From the IMG/VR virus record IMGVR_UViG_2623620497_000001, positions 1 to 5,745 of that record: a stretch of 5,745 bases of DNA. The stretch is one strand, 5' to 3'. A program made the translations under genes and the position numbers. Of the stretch, positions 1 through 5,745 are shown piece after piece. Within the stretch, counting starts at the first letter, position 1; the number at the start of each line of letters is the position of its first letter. This DNA comes from a virus (Duplodnaviria; Heunggongvirae; Uroviricota; Caudoviricetes). Under the pieces are notes generated by a model. That model was given only the letters and a program-made list of their open reading frames with translations. It ran no database searches and was not told where the DNA came from.

Positions 1-266
1 ATCCCGTTTTTCCCCACCACCCGTTCTTCCAGCTTGTCAAATACACCAATGACCAGATCGTGGTTGTTATCAAGGTAACGGGCCTGCTCACGTAACGACA
101 CGGCCCCGTACTGGCTTAACTGGTCGGCAGTTCGGTTCTCCCGTCGGGCTTTGTGTGTCCGCGTCGTTTTTACGGCCTCATAAGCCTGAATCACCGCACG
201 GGAACGCAGCCTTGCCGCTTTCCATCCTGGTGAAAAAACGCCAATCACATCATCAAGAATTGCCAT
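1..266 (-). CDS. Phage portal protein (lambda-family), N-terminal 88 codons; gene continues past the window start
   Basis: Minus-strand ATG at 266-264 shares the A of the upstream gene's TGA stop (268-266). The frame stays open to position 1 (MAILDDVIGVFSPGWKAARLRSRAVIQAYEAVKTTRTHKARRENRTADQLSQYGAVSLREQARYLDNNHDLVIGVFDKLEERVVGKNG...). It occupies the slot after the terminase and gpW genes, which is where lambda-like phages place the portal gene. The call rests on gene order; the family was not recognised from sequence. Confidence 0.55.
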   Translation of the reverse strand, partial: MAILDDVIGVFSPGWKAARLRSRAVIQAYEAVKTTRTHKARRENRTADQLSQYGAVSLREQARYLDNNHDLVIGVFDKLEERVVGKNG

Positions 267-484
267 CAGAACCTCGCCAGCCGGTACCCGGGATGCCCCC
301 GTCGTCGTGTAATCAGAGCCGCAAGGCGGCGCTCCCACTCCTGCCGTCCCTGCCGGATCTCAGATAAGTTTTCCATGGTCATCTGCTGACCATTAAAAGT
401 GACGGATTTTCCGTCCAGCACCGCCATTTCAGCTTCCGTATAACGCTGAATCATGGCTTCAATATCATTCTGATTCATAACCAT
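266..484 (-). CDS. gpW-like head-tail joining / head completion protein
   Basis: 72-aa ORF immediately after the large terminase, overlapping its 3' end by 10 nt. Its size and the C-terminal RRRGHPGY motif resemble what I recall of lambda gpW (about 68 aa, C-terminal RRRGPAGF). Confidence 0.65.
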   Translation of the reverse strand: MVMNQNDIEAMIQRYTEAEMAVLDGKSVTFNGQQMTMENLSEIRQGRQEWERRLAALITRRRGHPGYRLARF

Positions 485-2577
485 CCTCCGGAAGTCAGCC
501 AGGGGTTAACATCGTCAGTTACTGTTTTCTTCCGTTTTTGTTTTTTAACAGGCGTGGATACCGGCTCCGGTGAGGGTGACGGTTCGGTACTGTCCGGGAC
601 ACACTCCAGCCAGGTTTCCCGGCTCGCCCACTCCGGTGCATCCGGCCAGCGGATCTTTTCGTATCCATGCAGAATGACCAGCGCCTCGGCATACACCATC
701 AGGTCAAAAGCTTCGTTGGCACCGCGACCCGGCTTACTCCATTTCCCGTCACTGCTCCGCTCTTCATACGTCAGTTCGTCGTAAAACCAGCTCCCCAGCC
801 AGTCAGGGAAATGCACATAGCCTGGACCTGGCGAGTCACGCCATAACGCGTTATTCACCCGGTCTTTCAGGGCATCCGTCTGAAGAAGCCAGAGCGGCAC
901 ATCACCTGCGGCCTGCGCCCGGCGGCCCGTTCGTCCGGTGTTATCAGGGAATGTACGGCTGATCAGTTTTGCGCGCCGGATGCTGTCGCCCTTAAACAGG
1001 TAAATACGTTTACCAAGGCCATCACGACGGCAACGACGCCAGAATTTATAGGCATTATCAGTGACCCCGTCTTCACCGCCGGAATCCACCGCCATTGCCA
1101 TCAGTCGCATTTGTTGAGAAGGATCGGAGGCCAGCGGCCAGCTTTTATGAAAAACATCCGTCAGCAGGACATCCCAGTCTTCCGGATAGCTGGCCGGATC
1201 AATTCGCTGGCTCTCCCCGTCGCTGTCACCGCGCAATGACTGCGTGATGTTGTAACGATCAATAATCCAGCGTTCGCCACGGCTGCCATAGCCCGTTACC
1301 TGAACCACAAAACGGCGATGACGTCCCGCCTGCACATCAACTGTCGCCACCAGGAAATTAACGCCATCCGGCACACTGCGGGAAGGAACTGGCTCTGCCC
1401 GCTGCTCAAGCAGTTCACTTTTTCGTTGCTCCATGCTGGCACGGGGAAGATAAGGTAATCCCCAGTCGGTATTGATAACCGTCTTGAGTGTTTCTTCACT
1501 TCCGGTTGTCTCGTATTCCTGTTCTGCAGTAAGCAGTTTGTAAACGAGTTGCGAGAGTGTCTGGTAAGCAGCTGCCGGACCCTCCATCCAGAATGACGCA
1601 ATACGTGAGCGTCGGGGATCACCATAACGACTGCCATCCGCATTGATGGATTCACCATCCCGCAACCAGACCCCACGTCCGTTCAGCTCACGTTTTTGTT
1701 CAGGCATAATCCGTCCTGAACAGGAAGGACACTGAATATAAGCCGCCTCACTTGCCAGCACGGGATCGGCAATATCACGGAAACCAGCAACCACATCGCC
1801 GCAGGGCTGAAAATACTCACCACAGTGTGGACAGGGCCAGTACCAGCGACGGCGATCGCCACGGTTATAGAGCGACAGTATCCCCGTGGTTGGTGGAGCC
1901 TCATGCGGTGAAGTCCGTCGCCATTTCACATCCTTCACATCCCTGCCGGGGGAACTCTCCACCAGCGTCATACCACTGGACATAAATGTGGTGGTACGTT
2001 TTGAGGCAAGAGAGAAGGCATCCCCCTCGCCATCAATATCTTCCGGAAAACGGTCATAATCCGTCAGCGCCACGCATTTATAATCTGATGAGGACATGAT
2101 ATTGACTGACGGCCAGCCGATTTTCAGGTAGTTGCCAGCAAGGAATGTTCTGTCATAAACGTTGTTGTCATTTTTGTTCGGACTCAGGCGACTGACCACT
2201 TCCGGGCTGACGCGAAACGTTCTGGCAAGTCGTTTTTTGGAGTGTTCGCGGGCTTTTTCCTCCGTCATCTGAATGATCAGCATATCAGCAGGATCGCAAA
2301 TCACATTGTAAATCACCCAGCCGTCAATCAGGCCGATAGTCTTGCCAGTTCGTGCCGGGCCAACAAATATCACTGCGTCGTATTCACGCGAGGCCAGGCA
2401 GTTCATCGGCTCAATAACATACGGTGCCACCAGCGGATCCCACGGGACTGAATTCCCGGCCCCCATGGGCACCCGCATATACTGAGCAACGGCATCAGCA
2501 ACCAGCATTCGTCTCGGTGCGCGAAGGATATAACCTGAATCGGTTCGTGCTGCCTTTGCGGTTTCCTGATTCAGCAT
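475..2577 (-). CDS. Terminase large subunit, lambda GpA family
   Basis: 700-aa ORF with a Walker A-like P-loop VGPARTGKT near the N-terminus and a CPHCGEYF motif resembling CPHCGEEQ of lambda gpA. Its ATG shares a base with the stop of the upstream small-subunit gene (TAATG at 2575-2579). Confidence 0.9.
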   Translation of the reverse strand: MLNQETAKAARTDSGYILRAPRRMLVADAVAQYMRVPMGAGNSVPWDPLVAPYVIEPMNCLASREYDAVIFVGPARTGKTIGLIDGWVIYNVICDPADMLIIQMTEEKAREHSKKRLARTFRVSPEVVSRLSPNKNDNNVYDRTFLAGNYLKIGWPSVNIMSSSDYKCVALTDYDRFPEDIDGEGDAFSLASKRTTTFMSSGMTLVESSPGRDVKDVKWRRTSPHEAPPTTGILSLYNRGDRRRWYWPCPHCGEYFQPCGDVVAGFRDIADPVLASEAAYIQCPSCSGRIMPEQKRELNGRGVWLRDGESINADGSRYGDPRRSRIASFWMEGPAAAYQTLSQLVYKLLTAEQEYETTGSEETLKTVINTDWGLPYLPRASMEQRKSELLEQRAEPVPSRSVPDGVNFLVATVDVQAGRHRRFVVQVTGYGSRGERWIIDRYNITQSLRGDSDGESQRIDPASYPEDWDVLLTDVFHKSWPLASDPSQQMRLMAMAVDSGGEDGVTDNAYKFWRRCRRDGLGKRIYLFKGDSIRRAKLISRTFPDNTGRTGRRAQAAGDVPLWLLQTDALKDRVNNALWRDSPGPGYVHFPDWLGSWFYDELTYEERSSDGKWSKPGRGANEAFDLMVYAEALVILHGYEKIRWPDAPEWASRETWLECVPDSTEPSPSPEPVSTPVKKQKRKKTVTDDVNPWLTSGGWL

Positions 2578-3068
2578 TACTCCTCCTGCTGTAATTCCTC
2601 CTCATCATCCGCACCTGCTTCGGTCACCCGCAGGGCTATCTGATCGCGCAGATCATCAATAATGGACTGAACACGGCTCACAGCGGCAGGCTGCAGGCCG
2701 CAGTCACGTTCCAGAATATCCGGTAATGTCTCCAGCACCTGCACGACCGCTTTTGCCCAGATGGCAAACTCCCGTCTGACATCACTGGCCGGAATGAGTT
2801 GTGCCGTTTCCTGTTCGAACTTAAGACGCTCACGTTCAGACTGATACCAGGCTTTGCGTTCATGTGGATCCATTTCGCCCTCAGCAACCGGCGGTGGTAA
2901 CCCCATAAATTCAGTCAGAATATCGGTCAACCGATATAGCTTGAGTTTGTCATGTCCACCAGCGGGACGAATGTTTTTCAGTCTTGCCACGACAGTCTGG
3001 CGGTGCAGACCAGATAAAGCCGCCAGTTGATTAATATTCAGCACCAAGTTTTTCAACTCATGATCCAT
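2577..3068 (-). CDS. Terminase small subunit, Nu1-like (N-terminal helix-turn-helix)
   Basis: 163-aa ORF directly upstream of and coupled to the large terminase. The N-terminus (LVLNINQLAALSGLHRQTVVARLKNI) has an HTH-like pattern as in lambda Nu1, and the C-terminus is acidic. A GGAGG Shine-Dalgarno lies 4 nt upstream of the ATG at 3068. Confidence 0.8.
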   Translation of the reverse strand: MDHELKNLVLNINQLAALSGLHRQTVVARLKNIRPAGGHDKLKLYRLTDILTEFMGLPPPVAEGEMDPHERKAWYQSERERLKFEQETAQLIPASDVRREFAIWAKAVVQVLETLPDILERDCGLQPAAVSRVQSIIDDLRDQIALRVTEAGADDEEELQQEE

Positions 3069-3123
3069 ATTTCCTCCGGAGAGCTTTAAACATGCATCGT
3101 GCGAACAACTTTAAGAAAACGCG

Positions 3124-3157
3124 TTCGATGTCGAACAAAAACCGCTCAATTCGACAT
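3124..3157. promoter_or_regulatory. Putative cosB-type terminase/IHF binding repeats
   Basis: ATGTCGAA (3128-3135) and TTCGACAT (3150-3157) form a perfect 8-bp inverted repeat with a 14-bp spacer. A third TTCGA half-site is at 3124-3128 and A-tracts follow. It lies between the putative cosN and the small terminase start, where lambda has its R elements and IHF site. Confidence 0.3.
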
Positions 3158-3230
3158 ACAAAAAACAAATAACCATTAATAATCAATAAGATGCAAAGAT
3201 GATGGTGGCCGATAAAAATGCAAAAACTAG

Positions 3231-3262
3231 CCTTTTTCCGCGACGCTCCCGCCCCGTGGTAG
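3231..3262 (-). other. Putative cosN (cohesive-end nicking site)
   Basis: Minus-strand 5'-CACGGGGCGGGAGCGTCGCGGAAAAAGG-3' resembles, from memory, the lambda cos junction ...ACG|GGGCGGCGACCTCGCGGG... . The presumed nick is about 186 nt upstream of the small terminase ATG, close to the roughly 190 nt I recall for lambda Nu1. Confidence 0.35.
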
Positions 3263-3362
3263 GCAACCCCGCCGGGAGGACCCATAAGAAAACACAGGTC
3301 CGACCGCCGTTTTGAATTCTCTTCTAAACGACTCTAGTTTGATTTGAGTATGCAATACGCGT

Positions 3363-3387
3363 AAAAAAGCCCCGCATAGGCGAGGCT
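3363..3387 (-). terminator. Rho-independent terminator downstream of the peptidase gene
   Basis: Minus-strand 5'-AGCCUCGC CUAU GCGGGGCU UUUUUU-3': an 8-bp GC-rich stem with one G-U wobble, a 4-nt loop and a run of six U. It starts 18 nt after the TAA stop at 3408-3406. Confidence 0.6.
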
Positions 3388-3405
3388 GGAATCAGACAGG
3401 GGGGA

Positions 3406-4308
3406 TTAAGACTGGATATTCCAAATCATTGCGTTACCGTTATGATTTTCAATGATTTTTGCCAGTGGTGCTCCACCAAAAGAATGCATGTAGCTGTGAT
3501 GTATAGTCAAAACCAAATCTTGAAGTACTTGATCACTTTCAAGTTCGGTAACATTCAACCCAATTTTCTGCGCCTTATCAAAATGAATATGACGCGAGTG
3601 GGTATAGGTTGTGTGATGGTTGTTTAACTCTGAACAAACATGTGTTGCTTTTGATTCTGCCTCAGGATCATTATCAAACATGCCTGTCATAAGCCAATGC
3701 TTAACAATCTCATTTGCCCATTTGATTGCTTTCTCACACTCGCCGATGATCGTCGGGTTTAGCTTTTGAAGAATGAACTGCCACATCTGAACAGCTGCGG
3801 GATTTTGAAAAATTTCCGTCTGCGCACGATTCCATTCTTCAATGATGGCATGGGTGGAGAAACCGTTGAACTGAGGATCAATTGGGCCAATGTTGGACTG
3901 TTTACCCATGATGATTTCATTGGCACAACATGCAAGCATAGTTCCGCAGGACATTGAAATCATAGGAACAATTGCTCTGATGTTAGTTCCAAACTTCGAC
4001 CTTAAGTAATGCCCGATTGATTCCAAAGCGGCAATATCACCACCTGGAGTATGAAGTATCAAATCCAACCCTTTTGATACATCTAAACCATTGATGGCTG
4101 TCATCAACCCGTTCTTATCATCATCAGTCATCTGAGTAAGATGGCGTACTTCTGCACCACCATGCTGTAACCACCCTGAGTAATATGTGATTACATTTCT
4201 TCCAGTATGATTCGAAAGTTGAGATAAGTATTTACGGCGAACCTCATCCATAGGACTTTTATGGGCGAGAGCCGTTATCTCGCCCAGTACGTCGCTCCAA
4301 TTAGGCAT
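3406..4308 (-). CDS. ClpP/crotonase-fold serine peptidase, SDH (serine dehydrogenase proteinase)-like
   Basis: 300-aa ORF. The segment DLILHTPGGDIAALESIGHYLRSKFGTNIRAIVPMISMSCGTMLACCANEIIMGK aligns by eye with the ClpP core (..[48 protein letters not shown]..), placing a Ser at the nucleophile position. The gene sits in an AT-rich block unlike the flanking phage genes. Its ATG (4308-4306) is 3 nt after the stop of the upstream small ORF and has no Shine-Dalgarno of its own, implying translational coupling. Confidence 0.7.
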   Translation of the reverse strand: MPNWSDVLGEITALAHKSPMDEVRRKYLSQLSNHTGRNVITYYSGWLQHGGAEVRHLTQMTDDDKNGLMTAINGLDVSKGLDLILHTPGGDIAALESIGHYLRSKFGTNIRAIVPMISMSCGTMLACCANEIIMGKQSNIGPIDPQFNGFSTHAIIEEWNRAQTEIFQNPAAVQMWQFILQKLNPTIIGECEKAIKWANEIVKHWLMTGMFDNDPEAESKATHVCSELNNHHTTYTHSRHIHFDKAQKIGLNVTELESDQVLQDLVLTIHHSYMHSFGGAPLAKIIENHNGNAMIWNIQS

Positions 4309-4311
4309 AAA

Positions 4312-4512
4312 TCAGTACGTGTAAAGTTGATGACTTGTAGTTTGGTTTTGCTTCGATTGTGTAGCGGTACCTTGTGAGTACCAAACACCTGTGTTTCCAC
4401 TCGTACTAGTTTGCTGTGCCATTACACGAGAAGCGAAGTTGTTAACAGTTTCACCAGTCAACATTTCTGCCGGTTTGATATTGTAAACATCGTAGAACTC
4501 AGCTGGGGTCAT
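4312..4512 (-). CDS. Small hypothetical protein (66 aa) with polar low-complexity C-terminal tail; first gene of the moron operon
   Basis: ATG at 4512-4510 is preceded by AAGGAG with an 8-nt spacer. The C-terminal half is rich in Q/T/S/N (QQTSTSGNTGVWYSQGTATQSKQNQTTSHQLYTY). It is tightly linked to the peptidase gene. No family was recognised. Confidence 0.55.
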   Translation of the reverse strand: MTPAEFYDVYNIKPAEMLTGETVNNFASRVMAQQTSTSGNTGVWYSQGTATQSKQNQTTSHQLYTY

Positions 4513-4520
4513 AATGATAG

Positions 4521-4600
4521 CTCCTTTTATAGCGCTACATATAGTGCCTGTGCTAAGGGGGACATACTATATGTGCCATTGTTGTCATATTTAAATGTGC
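4521..4600 (-). promoter_or_regulatory. Putative promoter/operator region of the moron operon
   Basis: AT-rich leader immediately upstream of the small ORF. A candidate -10 TATAGT (minus strand) has a weak -35-like TTAAAT 17 nt upstream. A perfect 9-bp inverted repeat ACATATAGT (4537-4545) / ACTATATGT (4566-4574) overlaps the region. Promoter assignment is tentative. Confidence 0.3.
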
Positions 4601-4621
4601 AAAAAGCCTCAAAAGAGGCTT
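4598..4621 (-). terminator. Hairpin with U-tract (weak intrinsic terminator or insulator) upstream of the moron
   Basis: Minus-strand 5'-AAGCCUC UUUU GAGGCUU UUUG-3': a 7-bp stem, 4-nt loop and five U counting the last two stem bases. The plus-strand version is followed by GAAAAAG, so it would act only on the minus strand. Confidence 0.35.
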
Positions 4622-4882
4622 GAAAAAGATGCAAAAATACTATCTATGACGTGACTATAGCTACTTACCCACAGTTTATACAAGCCAAAAATGCTAAATT
4701 CAGATAATCCTATTCGCTGAAAAACTACACAAAAGCTACGTTCATCTTGTCATTAGATAACGTCAGTAACTTTCACTAGATCTAAGCCATTGGTGAAAAA
4801 GCTAATTGCATGATGAAGCACTGTAATGTAGCAGTTGAGGTTGTTAAATGAGAATCACCCTAACAATGTCAACGGACATTAT

Positions 4883-5419
4883 TCATTTTCGTAACTTCTC
4901 AATCTCTCGTATACCCGCCAGGTTATTGTTGCCCTTCTCAATAACAGCCAGCAAAGGTTCAATCCAGAGGACGGCCTGGCAATACGTCATTGAGCTGGCG
5001 GCAGCGGTACTATCATCGGTTGCGTTAGTGTTCCCGGTATCGGGGTGCATTGCGCTGGCACGTAAACGGTACGCGTATTTGAGCAGCCCACCAGCGACAT
5101 CAGCAGGAACAGGCAGATCACAGGTCTTTTCACGTCGGAGAATCTCCCGGTATTCGATGACAGTTTTCTCAGTACCGGCATCGATCAGCGAGTTAAGGCG
5201 GTTGGCGTTCTCTGCTATCTGGTTAAACCGATTGAAGTTGAAAGCCTGTGTAGTTATCACCGTCGCCTGCAGCGCGTTATCATTACGTAATACCCGATTC
5301 TCACTCTGTTCTGTTTCAAGAGCTGAGCGGCTACGAACCAGTAATACGCTAAGCACTGCAATAATGATTACGACAGCCACCAGCAGAACCGCAACAATCG
5401 TAATTTTTCTGGGTTTCAT
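4883..5419 (-). CDS. Rz: Rz-like i-spanin (type II inner-membrane lysis protein)
   Basis: 178-aa ORF whose ATG shares a base with the endolysin TGA stop (TGATG at 5417-5421). It has an N-terminal transmembrane segment (ITIVAVLLVAVVIIIAVLSVLLV) followed by a charged periplasmic domain, and it contains an embedded out-of-frame lipoprotein ORF. Confidence 0.75.
   Translation of the reverse strand: MKPRKITIVAVLLVAVVIIIAVLSVLLVRSRSALETEQSENRVLRNDNALQATVITTQAFNFNRFNQIAENANRLNSLIDAGTEKTVIEYREILRREKTCDLPVPADVAGGLLKYAYRLRASAMHPDTGNTNATDDSTAAASSMTYCQAVLWIEPLLAVIEKGNNNLAGIREIEKLRK
4987..5181 (-). CDS. Rz1: Rz1-like o-spanin lipoprotein embedded in Rz in another frame; true start probably the internal GTG near 5133
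   Basis: The ORF lies entirely inside Rz in a different frame. It has a lipoprotein signal with lipobox (VKRPVICLFLLMSLVG|C) followed by a short proline-rich mature part (CSNTRTVYVPAQCTPIPGTLTQPMIVPLPPAQ), which is the classic Rz1 signature. Confidence 0.6.
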   Translation of the reverse strand: MPVLRKLSSNTGRFSDVKRPVICLFLLMSLVGCSNTRTVYVPAQCTPIPGTLTQPMIVPLPPAQ

Positions 5420-5745
5420 CAGAATACCCCCGGAACTGATACCGGAATGCCTGGGTTAAGCGGCCCGAGCCCATCACCAAGAACCTGAGGTTTTTCTGCC
5501 CACAGGCAAACTTCACGCTCAATCTCACGACGAGTCATCAGGCCTTTCCATTGCTTACCGCCAGCGTATATCCAGCGACGTAGCTGGTCACATGCGCCTT
5601 TGATATCGCCCTGGTTTATTTTGCGAAGAAGCGTCGATGTTCTGAAATTGCCAGCACCCACGTTGTAGACGAACGAGTAAAGAGCGCCGCGCGTTGTTTC
5701 CGGTATATCGACTTTGATGTACGGGTTAATTTGTCTGGCAACCGT
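5419..5745 (-). CDS. Phage endolysin (lysozyme, GH24 T4/P22-type), C-terminal part; gene continues past the window end
   Basis: The minus-strand frame is open from the window edge: [58 protein letters not shown]..., which matches what I recall of enterobacterial prophage lysozymes. It is immediately followed by Rz/Rz1. The Met at 5661 in the ORF track is an internal GTG, not the start. Confidence 0.8.

Follow-up and report, generated by a model that had tools for sequence, protein, structure and literature searches.

A predicted lambda-like cos region beside a DUF1441-type small terminase gene in an Escherichia coli prophage family

Phages are regarded as lambda-like with respect to their cohesive ends if they possess 12-base 5' extensions similar to those of lambda (Feiss et al. 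2015, PMC4669245). A stretch of 5,745 nucleotides from a phage of the Caudoviricetes (IMG/VR record IMGVR_UViG_2623620497_000001, positions 1 to 5,745; referred to here as the window) carries on its minus strand, upstream of a small terminase gene, a sequence which combines the flanks of the lambda cohesive-end site with a different centre. This raises the question whether the locus represents a cos site, which cohesive end it would generate and whether such an end is peculiar to this phage.

cosN and its genetic environment

Reading of the window together with an index check places the sequence ACG-GGGCGGGAGCGT-CGCGG (hyphens on either side of a 12-mer indicate the predicted nicks) on the minus strand at 3238..3257, exactly in the form given by a preliminary description of the locus. 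The ACG flank occupies 3257..3255, the central 12-mer 3254..3243 and the CGCGG flank 3242..3238. In a wider reading the site runs 5'-ACC ACG-GGGCGGGAGCGT-CGCGG AAAAAGG-3', and it can likewise be given as ...TATGGGTCCTCCCGGCGGGGTTGCCTACCACG-GGGCGGGAGCGT-CGCGGAAAAAGGCTAGTTTTTGC.... The lambda sequence given in the preliminary description agrees with the deposited one: in J02459 the site reads ACG-GGGCGGCGACCT-CGCGG, with the record ending in ...GGGTCCTTTCCGGTGATCCGACAGGTTACG, that is in ...GGTTACG, and starting with GGGCGGCGACCTCGCGG. Both flanks are identical to those of lambda, whereas the 12-mers differ at bp 7, 8, 9 and 11. The predicted extension is identical to that of lambda at 8 of 12 positions, comprising all six of bp 1-6 as well as bp 10 and 12. 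Moreover, CG is kept at both predicted nicks (CCACG-GGG...CGT-CGCGG), the symmetry axis lies between bp 6 and 7, and the two-fold symmetry of cosN extends over 12 of 22 positions in the window compared to 10 of 22 in lambda. A shuffled window would be expected to contain 0.07 copies of the pattern ACGGGGCGGN6CGCGG when up to 2 mismatches are tolerated; the real one has a single copy, with 0 mismatches. The match is beyond chance, and it is found in the expected gene context with a cosQ at the expected distance.

On the minus strand the order of genes is lysozyme fragment, Rz-like spanin, 66-aa ORF, protease ORF, cos, small terminase subunit (TerS), large terminase subunit (TerL) and adaptor, an arrangement which equals the lysis-cos-Nu1-A-W order of lambda. 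The TerS gene (2577..3068, minus strand, 163 aa) starts with an ATG at 3068, corresponding to +187 if the first overhang base is counted as +1. The distance of about 186 nt to the small terminase gene, previously described as matching lambda, is hereby borne out to within 4 nt, since Nu1 starts at +191. TerS belongs to DUF1441 (Pfam, E 4.6e-44) and to PHROG 141, 'terminase small subunit' (E 2.7e-77), and has a predicted N-terminal helix-turn-helix, with a weak match to HTH_30 at residues 11-40. BLASTP yielded no alignment between TerS and lambda Nu1, a profile-profile comparison (hhalign) of five DUF1441 TerS with two Nu1 sequences gave a probability of 8.8%, and a sequence search of the PDB with TerS returned nothing meaningful. 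A single-sequence AlphaFold model was unusable, its mean pLDDT being 52 and its first 64 residues staying below 50. PHROG 141 and the position of the gene suggest that TerS is functionally analogous to Nu1, although the profile comparison does not place it in the Nu1 family.

TerL (475..2577, minus strand, 700 aa) is a member of the gpA family with an ATPase domain (GpA_ATPase, PF05876, E 8.5e-72) and an endonuclease domain (GpA_nuclease, PF20454, E 1.2e-85), both full length. Its identity amounts to 25% with lambda gpA (BLASTP, E 2e-19), 88% with the TerL of phage cdtI and 80% with that of phage LLS. At the position of lambda gpW a head-tail adaptor of 72 aa is encoded (266..484, minus strand; PHROG 118, E 1.4e-37).

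Upstream of cos, the Rz-like spanin gene (5419..4883, minus strand) contains, out of frame, a 64-aa ORF with a lipobox-like LVGC motif (4987-5181, minus strand), which is the usual Rz/Rz1 arrangement. Situated between the lysis cassette and cosQ is the gene for a 300-aa SDH-type ClpP-like serine protease (4308..3406, minus strand; PF01972, E 8e-23; PHROG 11747, unknown function), which is followed by a terminator-like hairpin of its own (3387..3368, minus strand). The protease gene has the appearance of a moron that entered immediately upstream of cos, and cosQ (3283) is the exact point from which homology with phage PhiR40_1 and its relatives extends.

The same gene context bears on whether the resemblance to lambda cosN could be that of a fortuitous G+C-rich sequence, devoid of any packaging role, in a phage which packages by the headful (pac) mechanism. 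The exact 20-mer does occur in high-G+C Streptomyces and Sphingomonas genomes outside of any phage context; these matches, together with one in Treponema, lack cosQ as well and were discarded as chance matches. However, the 0.07 occurrences expected in the window even with 2 mismatches, a cosQ at the right distance, the adjacent terminase genes, a gpA-family TerL, which is a cos-type enzyme, and phage genome records which terminate at the site leave a headful phage with a chance match barely conceivable, and the context effectively refutes it.

cosQ, spacer and candidate cosB

The heptamer GGGTCCT, the packaging-termination signal cosQ, is located at 3277..3283 on the minus strand, with its first base 29 bp upstream of the first overhang base. 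Previous work has described the 7-bp cosQ as highly conserved, without apparent natural variation (PMC4669245). In lambda, N15 and Gifsy-1 the heptamer starts at -30, in the window, LLS and cdtI at -29; among 123 related cos copies, 116 have cosQ at -29, although the bases around it vary. The cosQ-cosN spacer (window 3258-3276) displays a consistent 1-bp difference between the clade with DUF1441-type TerS (-29) and lambda, N15 and Gifsy-1 (-30). Alignment with the cos regions of lambda and N15, a check named in the preliminary description, reveals the same cosQ heptamer in addition to the identical lambda flanks. The cosQ at -29, bp 1-6 of the cohesive end, the CG pairs at the nicks, the symmetry and the position between lysis and terminase genes all fit the initial reading as a cos site.

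On the other side of cosN, a conserved spacer at +13..+34 (CGCGGAAAAAGGCTAGTTTTTG; 3221..3242, minus strand) takes the position of I2 in lambda, between cosN and cosB. Comparison of 124 cos copies in the loci collected revealed identity from +1 to +34, followed by three sequence classes from +35 on. The spacer +13..+34 is identical in all three cosB/TerS classes which have the cosN of the window, the search pattern for cosN copies having left +18..+34 free. By analogy with lambda I2 (PMC4669245), this spacer may participate in the termination of packaging.

The candidate cosB, the putative small-terminase binding region, extends from +35 to +140 (3115..3220, minus strand). Each of the three cosB classes, termed window type, mEp460 type and cdtI type, is tied to its own class of TerS, and the ATG of TerS is fixed at +185..+187 in all three without indels. 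Between window and mEp460 class, identity drops from 100% in +1..+34 to 54% in +35..+95 and 53% in +96..+140 and rises again to 78% in +141..+186, likewise without indels. Such class-wise divergence of +35..+140 is the pattern that would be expected of a cosB specificity module, comparable to lambda versus phage 21 (PMC4669245).

Within the candidate cosB, an IHF-like core with 1 mismatch to the consensus is positioned at 3193..3181 (+62..+74, minus strand), where the other two cosB classes have a perfect core. A scan with the IHF consensus gave 3 matches versus 5.4 expected, so the core of the window is not significant alone and constitutes a positional candidate only. Further downstream, an inverted repeat is formed by ATGTCGAA and TTCGACAT (3157..3150 and 3135..3128, minus strand; +98..+105 and +120..+127), to which AGTGTCGAA-N15-TTCGACACT corresponds at the equivalent place in Gifsy-2. 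The mEp460-type sister class shows TCATCAC-type repeats at about +47 and about +121 next to its perfect IHF core. In a comparison with the complex cosB layout R3-I1-R2-R1, where TerS binds three related repeats, R2 being inverted, and an IHF site (I1) separates R3 from R2, no convincing copy of an R3-like third repeat was detected in the candidate cosB of the window. Folding of ATGTCGAA and TTCGACAT into a DNA hairpin is not significant (z = -1.14), and a protein-binding site is the more likely function of the repeat. A weak terminator-like match which overlaps it (3137..3122, minus strand) was regarded as incidental.

A 75-aa ORF spans cosQ, cosN and cosB (window 3058-3285, minus strand), and a 'hypothetical protein' is annotated at this place in PhiR40_1 (locus L133, 1421-1726). 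Most likely this ORF is not a gene, as packaging would split it in every genome.

Termini of related phages and the predicted cohesive end

By homology, the phage of the window is predicted to carry a 12-nt 5' cohesive end formed by 3243..3254 (minus strand), which would appear as 5'-GGGCGGGAGCGT at the left and as 5'-ACGCTCCCGCCC at the right end of the genome. The nicks would fall between 3255 and 3254 in the top strand and between 3243 and 3242 in the bottom strand, as judged from lambda, N15 and the deposited ends of cdtI and Tritos.

A megablast search against GenBank phages revealed that the records of cdtI (AB285204 / NC_009514) and Tritos (OV696610) begin at the base which aligns with window position 3254. 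Both start with GGGCGGGAGCGTCGCGGAAAAAGG, likewise written GGGCGGGAGCGTCGCGGAAAAAGGCTAGTTTTT, where the first 12 bases are the 12-mer of the window, and end in ...GGGTCC(T/C)(T/C)CCGGTGGGG...CCTGCCACG, i.e. in ...CCACG. Thus, the predicted cohesive end and both predicted nicks already define the termini of deposited genomes. Both phages share cosQ, cosN and the spacer +13..+34 with the window, and their TerL is 88% identical. In contrast, their cosB differs from +35 on and their TerS is of another class with 42% identity, which predicts a different specificity of packaging initiation.

The paper on Tritos makes no mention of cos or termini. An experimental end determination for exactly the cos of the window was not located in the literature covered, outside of which lie Asakura 2007 (cdtI) and Vahanian 2017. 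A search for GGGCGGGAGCGT, its reverse complement and related 12-mers detected GGGCGGGAGCGT in none of the phage papers covered, and a 12-mer of a clade relative in the LLS paper alone. In LLS / mEp213 (PQ299149), the annotation places a 12-nt 5' cohesive site, GGGCGGCGCGCT, at the homologous position. This site had been inferred by recourse to Vahanian et al. 2017 and M. Feiss, and the reads from virion DNA did not cross cos. LLS resembles the window in TerL (80% identity), TerS (about 63%), the cosQ at -29 and the flanks CCACG-...-CGCGG, but its overhang differs at bp 7-11 and its TerS starts at +130, implying a shorter cosB.

A close match in the cos region is provided by the phages PhiR40_1, PhiR47_1, PhiR55_1 and vB_EcoS-606R10, whose DNA is 98% identical between cosQ and the end of TerS and whose TerS proteins are 100% identical; PhiR40_1 agrees with the window completely or almost completely in cosQ, cosN and cosB. 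These phages differ from the window in the sequence upstream of cosQ, where the window has the SDH-type protease, and their records are not opened at cos. A study on phage defence has employed PhiR40.1, PhiR47.1 and PhiR55.1 as infectious phages (bioRxiv 10.1101/2025.11.03.685801).

The record of mEp460_4F5 (LR595868.1, L126/L127) starts with CCACGGGGCGGGAGCG-CGGAAAAAGG, 5 nt before the predicted nick and with 3 nt missing inside cosN, and ends in ...GGGGTGGCCTG. This start probably reflects faulty assembly at the cohesive ends and is neutral with regard to the nick positions.

A real cos site could nevertheless be nicked away from the lambda-equivalent positions and yield an end other than the 12-mer GGGCGGGAGCGT, of different length or offset. 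Such a shift might be accommodated by a TerL that shares only a quarter of its residues with gpA and by a cosQ-cosN spacing 1 bp shorter than in lambda, and submitters may have placed the ends of public records by analogy. Against it speak the CG at both lambda nick positions, the preserved symmetry axis between bp 6 and 7, the confinement of variation in the clade to bp 7-12 of the predicted overhang and the fact that three independent submitters (cdtI, Tritos, LLS) have put the ends here. Taken together, displaced nicks are very improbable.

A related possibility concerns the enzyme, namely that the terminase clade of cdtI, mEp460 and LLS recognises cosN differently from lambda, either by a specificity at the level of cosN and cosQ beside that of cosB or by offset nicks. 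The features behind it are the low identity of TerL to gpA, the DUF1441-type TerS, the cosQ placed 1 bp closer and, within the dyad, a G instead of C at bp 7. This is held to be improbable; if it applied, one would have to explain which constraint keeps cosQ and bp 1-6 nearly identical in spite of the distance between the enzymes.

With the lambda-equivalent nicks retained as the preferred assignment, the four substitutions in the overhang can be compared with natural variation. According to a published analysis, selection does not act on bp 7-12, and conservation is seen in cosQ, in bp 1-6 and in the CG pairs flanking the nicks; differences in bp 7-12 are common, as seen at bp 9 and 12 in N15 and at bp 8, 9 and 11 in Gifsy-1, which is cited there as a lambda-like cos variant (PMC4669245). 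The differences of N15 and Gifsy-1 re-extracted in the present analysis equal the published ones, which validates the cosN comparison. In lambda the substitution C11G has no phenotype, and mutations in the right half are without phenotype because TerL, anchored by cosB, nicks there with little sequence dependence (PMC4669245). The overhang of the window obeys this published rule of free variation in bp 7-12 (PMC4669245).

Gifsy-1, a Salmonella phage, has the end GGGCGGCAGCGT, which differs from that of the window only at bp 7, and shares the cosQ GGGTCCT. It differs in its Nu1-type TerS, its lambda/21-like head genes, its cosQ at -30 and its 3' flank CGCAG. Compared to lambda, the window shares the cosQ heptamer, the flanks, the CG at both nicks, the two-fold symmetry and the order cos-TerS-TerL(gpA)-adaptor with TerS starting about 190 bp downstream; apart from the overhang and the 1-bp shift of cosQ from -30 to -29, it differs in an unrelated cosB sequence and in having a DUF1441-type TerS where lambda has Nu1.

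Gifsy-2 (NC_010393, L128 1010-1060) encodes a DUF1441 TerS 48% identical to that of the window, with a more diverged cos region. Its cos reads GGTACTCCCGGGCAGGGGGCGCCACG GGTGGCTTCGGGCT CGCGGG, with 14 nt between the ACG and CGCGG flanks, and an exact GGGTCCT is absent from the Gifsy-2 cos region. The cohesive end of Gifsy-2 can not be read by simple analogy.

Distribution and proposed packaging mechanism

The exact 20-mer is present in at least 119 IMG/VR contigs, and with the 91-nt cos core as query, 2132 of 5426 complete E. coli genomes (about 39%) gave matches to similar sequence, at up to 7 places per genome. Among contigs representing one genome per species, the site in a phage context is confined to Escherichia and two contigs of metagenome-assembled genomes (MAGs) labelled Veillonella and Bacillota. 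The latter two are probably mis-binned, as they contain the cosQ and the +13..+34 spacer of Escherichia phages. Minor overhang variants occur within the same flanks (GGGCGGCAGCGG, GGGCGGGCGGTT and GGGCGGGAGCGG), and all of their variation falls within bp 7-12. Within a large clade of E. coli prophages, GGGCGGGAGCGT represents the cos type of the majority; it is ordinary, already known and widespread. The overhang had been presented as distinct; this holds with respect to lambda, from which it differs at 4 bp, but it is neither novel nor unique to the phage of the window.

The abundance of the site bears on whether the copy in the window is still in use. It could be a relic in a defective prophage, or a site used only with the terminase of a co-resident helper. 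Only 5.7 kb of the phage are visible, the closest complete genome has a TerL truncated after 331 aa and replaced head genes, and many of the up to 7 related cos cores per E. coli genome are likely to reside in decayed prophages. However, the window has intact ORFs for TerS (163 aa), the adaptor and TerL (700 aa, with both Pfam domains in full length), and its cosQ, cosN and cosB match those of the plaque-forming phage PhiR40.1 completely or almost completely. A relic therefore appears unlikely here.

The closest complete genome is that of E. coli UK_Dog_Liverpool (NZ_CP031653), the sole complete genome with a 100% match, which covers window 5745..1579. In this strain TerL ends after 331 aa, and a satellite-like element takes the place of the head genes. 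This element of about 10 kb following the truncated TerL (L132 20754-32061) encodes an integrase, a primase, an SSB, a fusion of prohead protease and major capsid protein, and a DUF1441 TerS of its own. It contains two further cos copies (L132 28686 and 31222), the second of which has a G at bp 12 (GGGCGGGAGCGG). The same layout recurs in another IMG/VR contig (L011, 2574179916_000005). The element resembles a capsid-forming phage satellite which carries the cosN of its helper.

On the basis of the observed sequence, context, conservation, co-variation with the terminase genes and identity to the ends of deposited genomes, window 3283..3115 (minus strand) very probably represents the cosQ-cosN-cosB region of a lambdoid E. 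coli prophage with a packaging module of the cdtI / mEp460 / Gifsy-2-like clade. Nick positions, overhang polarity and protein-DNA contacts are adopted from lambda. Because TerL is only 25% identical to gpA and TerS is without detectable homology to Nu1, the lambda mechanism is transferred here by analogy.

According to this scheme, the DUF1441 TerS, with its predicted N-terminal helix-turn-helix, would bind to the class-specific cosB at about +35..+140, probably assisted by an IHF-induced bend near +62..+74. Binding of TerS would position a symmetric pair of endonuclease centres of the gpA-family TerL on cosN, and TerL would introduce nicks 12 bp apart at the conserved CG steps, at 3255/3254 in the top and 3243/3242 in the bottom strand. 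Subsequent strand separation would generate the 5' overhangs GGGCGGGAGCGT at the left and ACGCTCCCGCCC at the right end. Translocation into the prohead would proceed from the end with the terminase genes, towards lower window coordinates, and would stop at the next cos, where the terminal cut is expected to need both cosQ (GGGTCCT at -29) and cosN. The four differences to the overhang of lambda all reside in bp 7-12, the half next to cosB, and should be tolerated as substitutions are in this half of the lambda site.

For the annotation of these phages, the position of cos and the predicted overhang allow the prophage family to be opened and oriented correctly, with little consequence beyond annotation. 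The predicted overhang further aids the reading of read-start pile-ups in viromes and predicts which co-resident prophages and satellites have compatible sticky ends. What is added to the published picture is the combination, within one clade, of a single dominant overhang (GGGCGGGAGCGT) with at least three cosB/TerS specificity modules, a modularity which follows the same logic as that of lambda versus phage 21.
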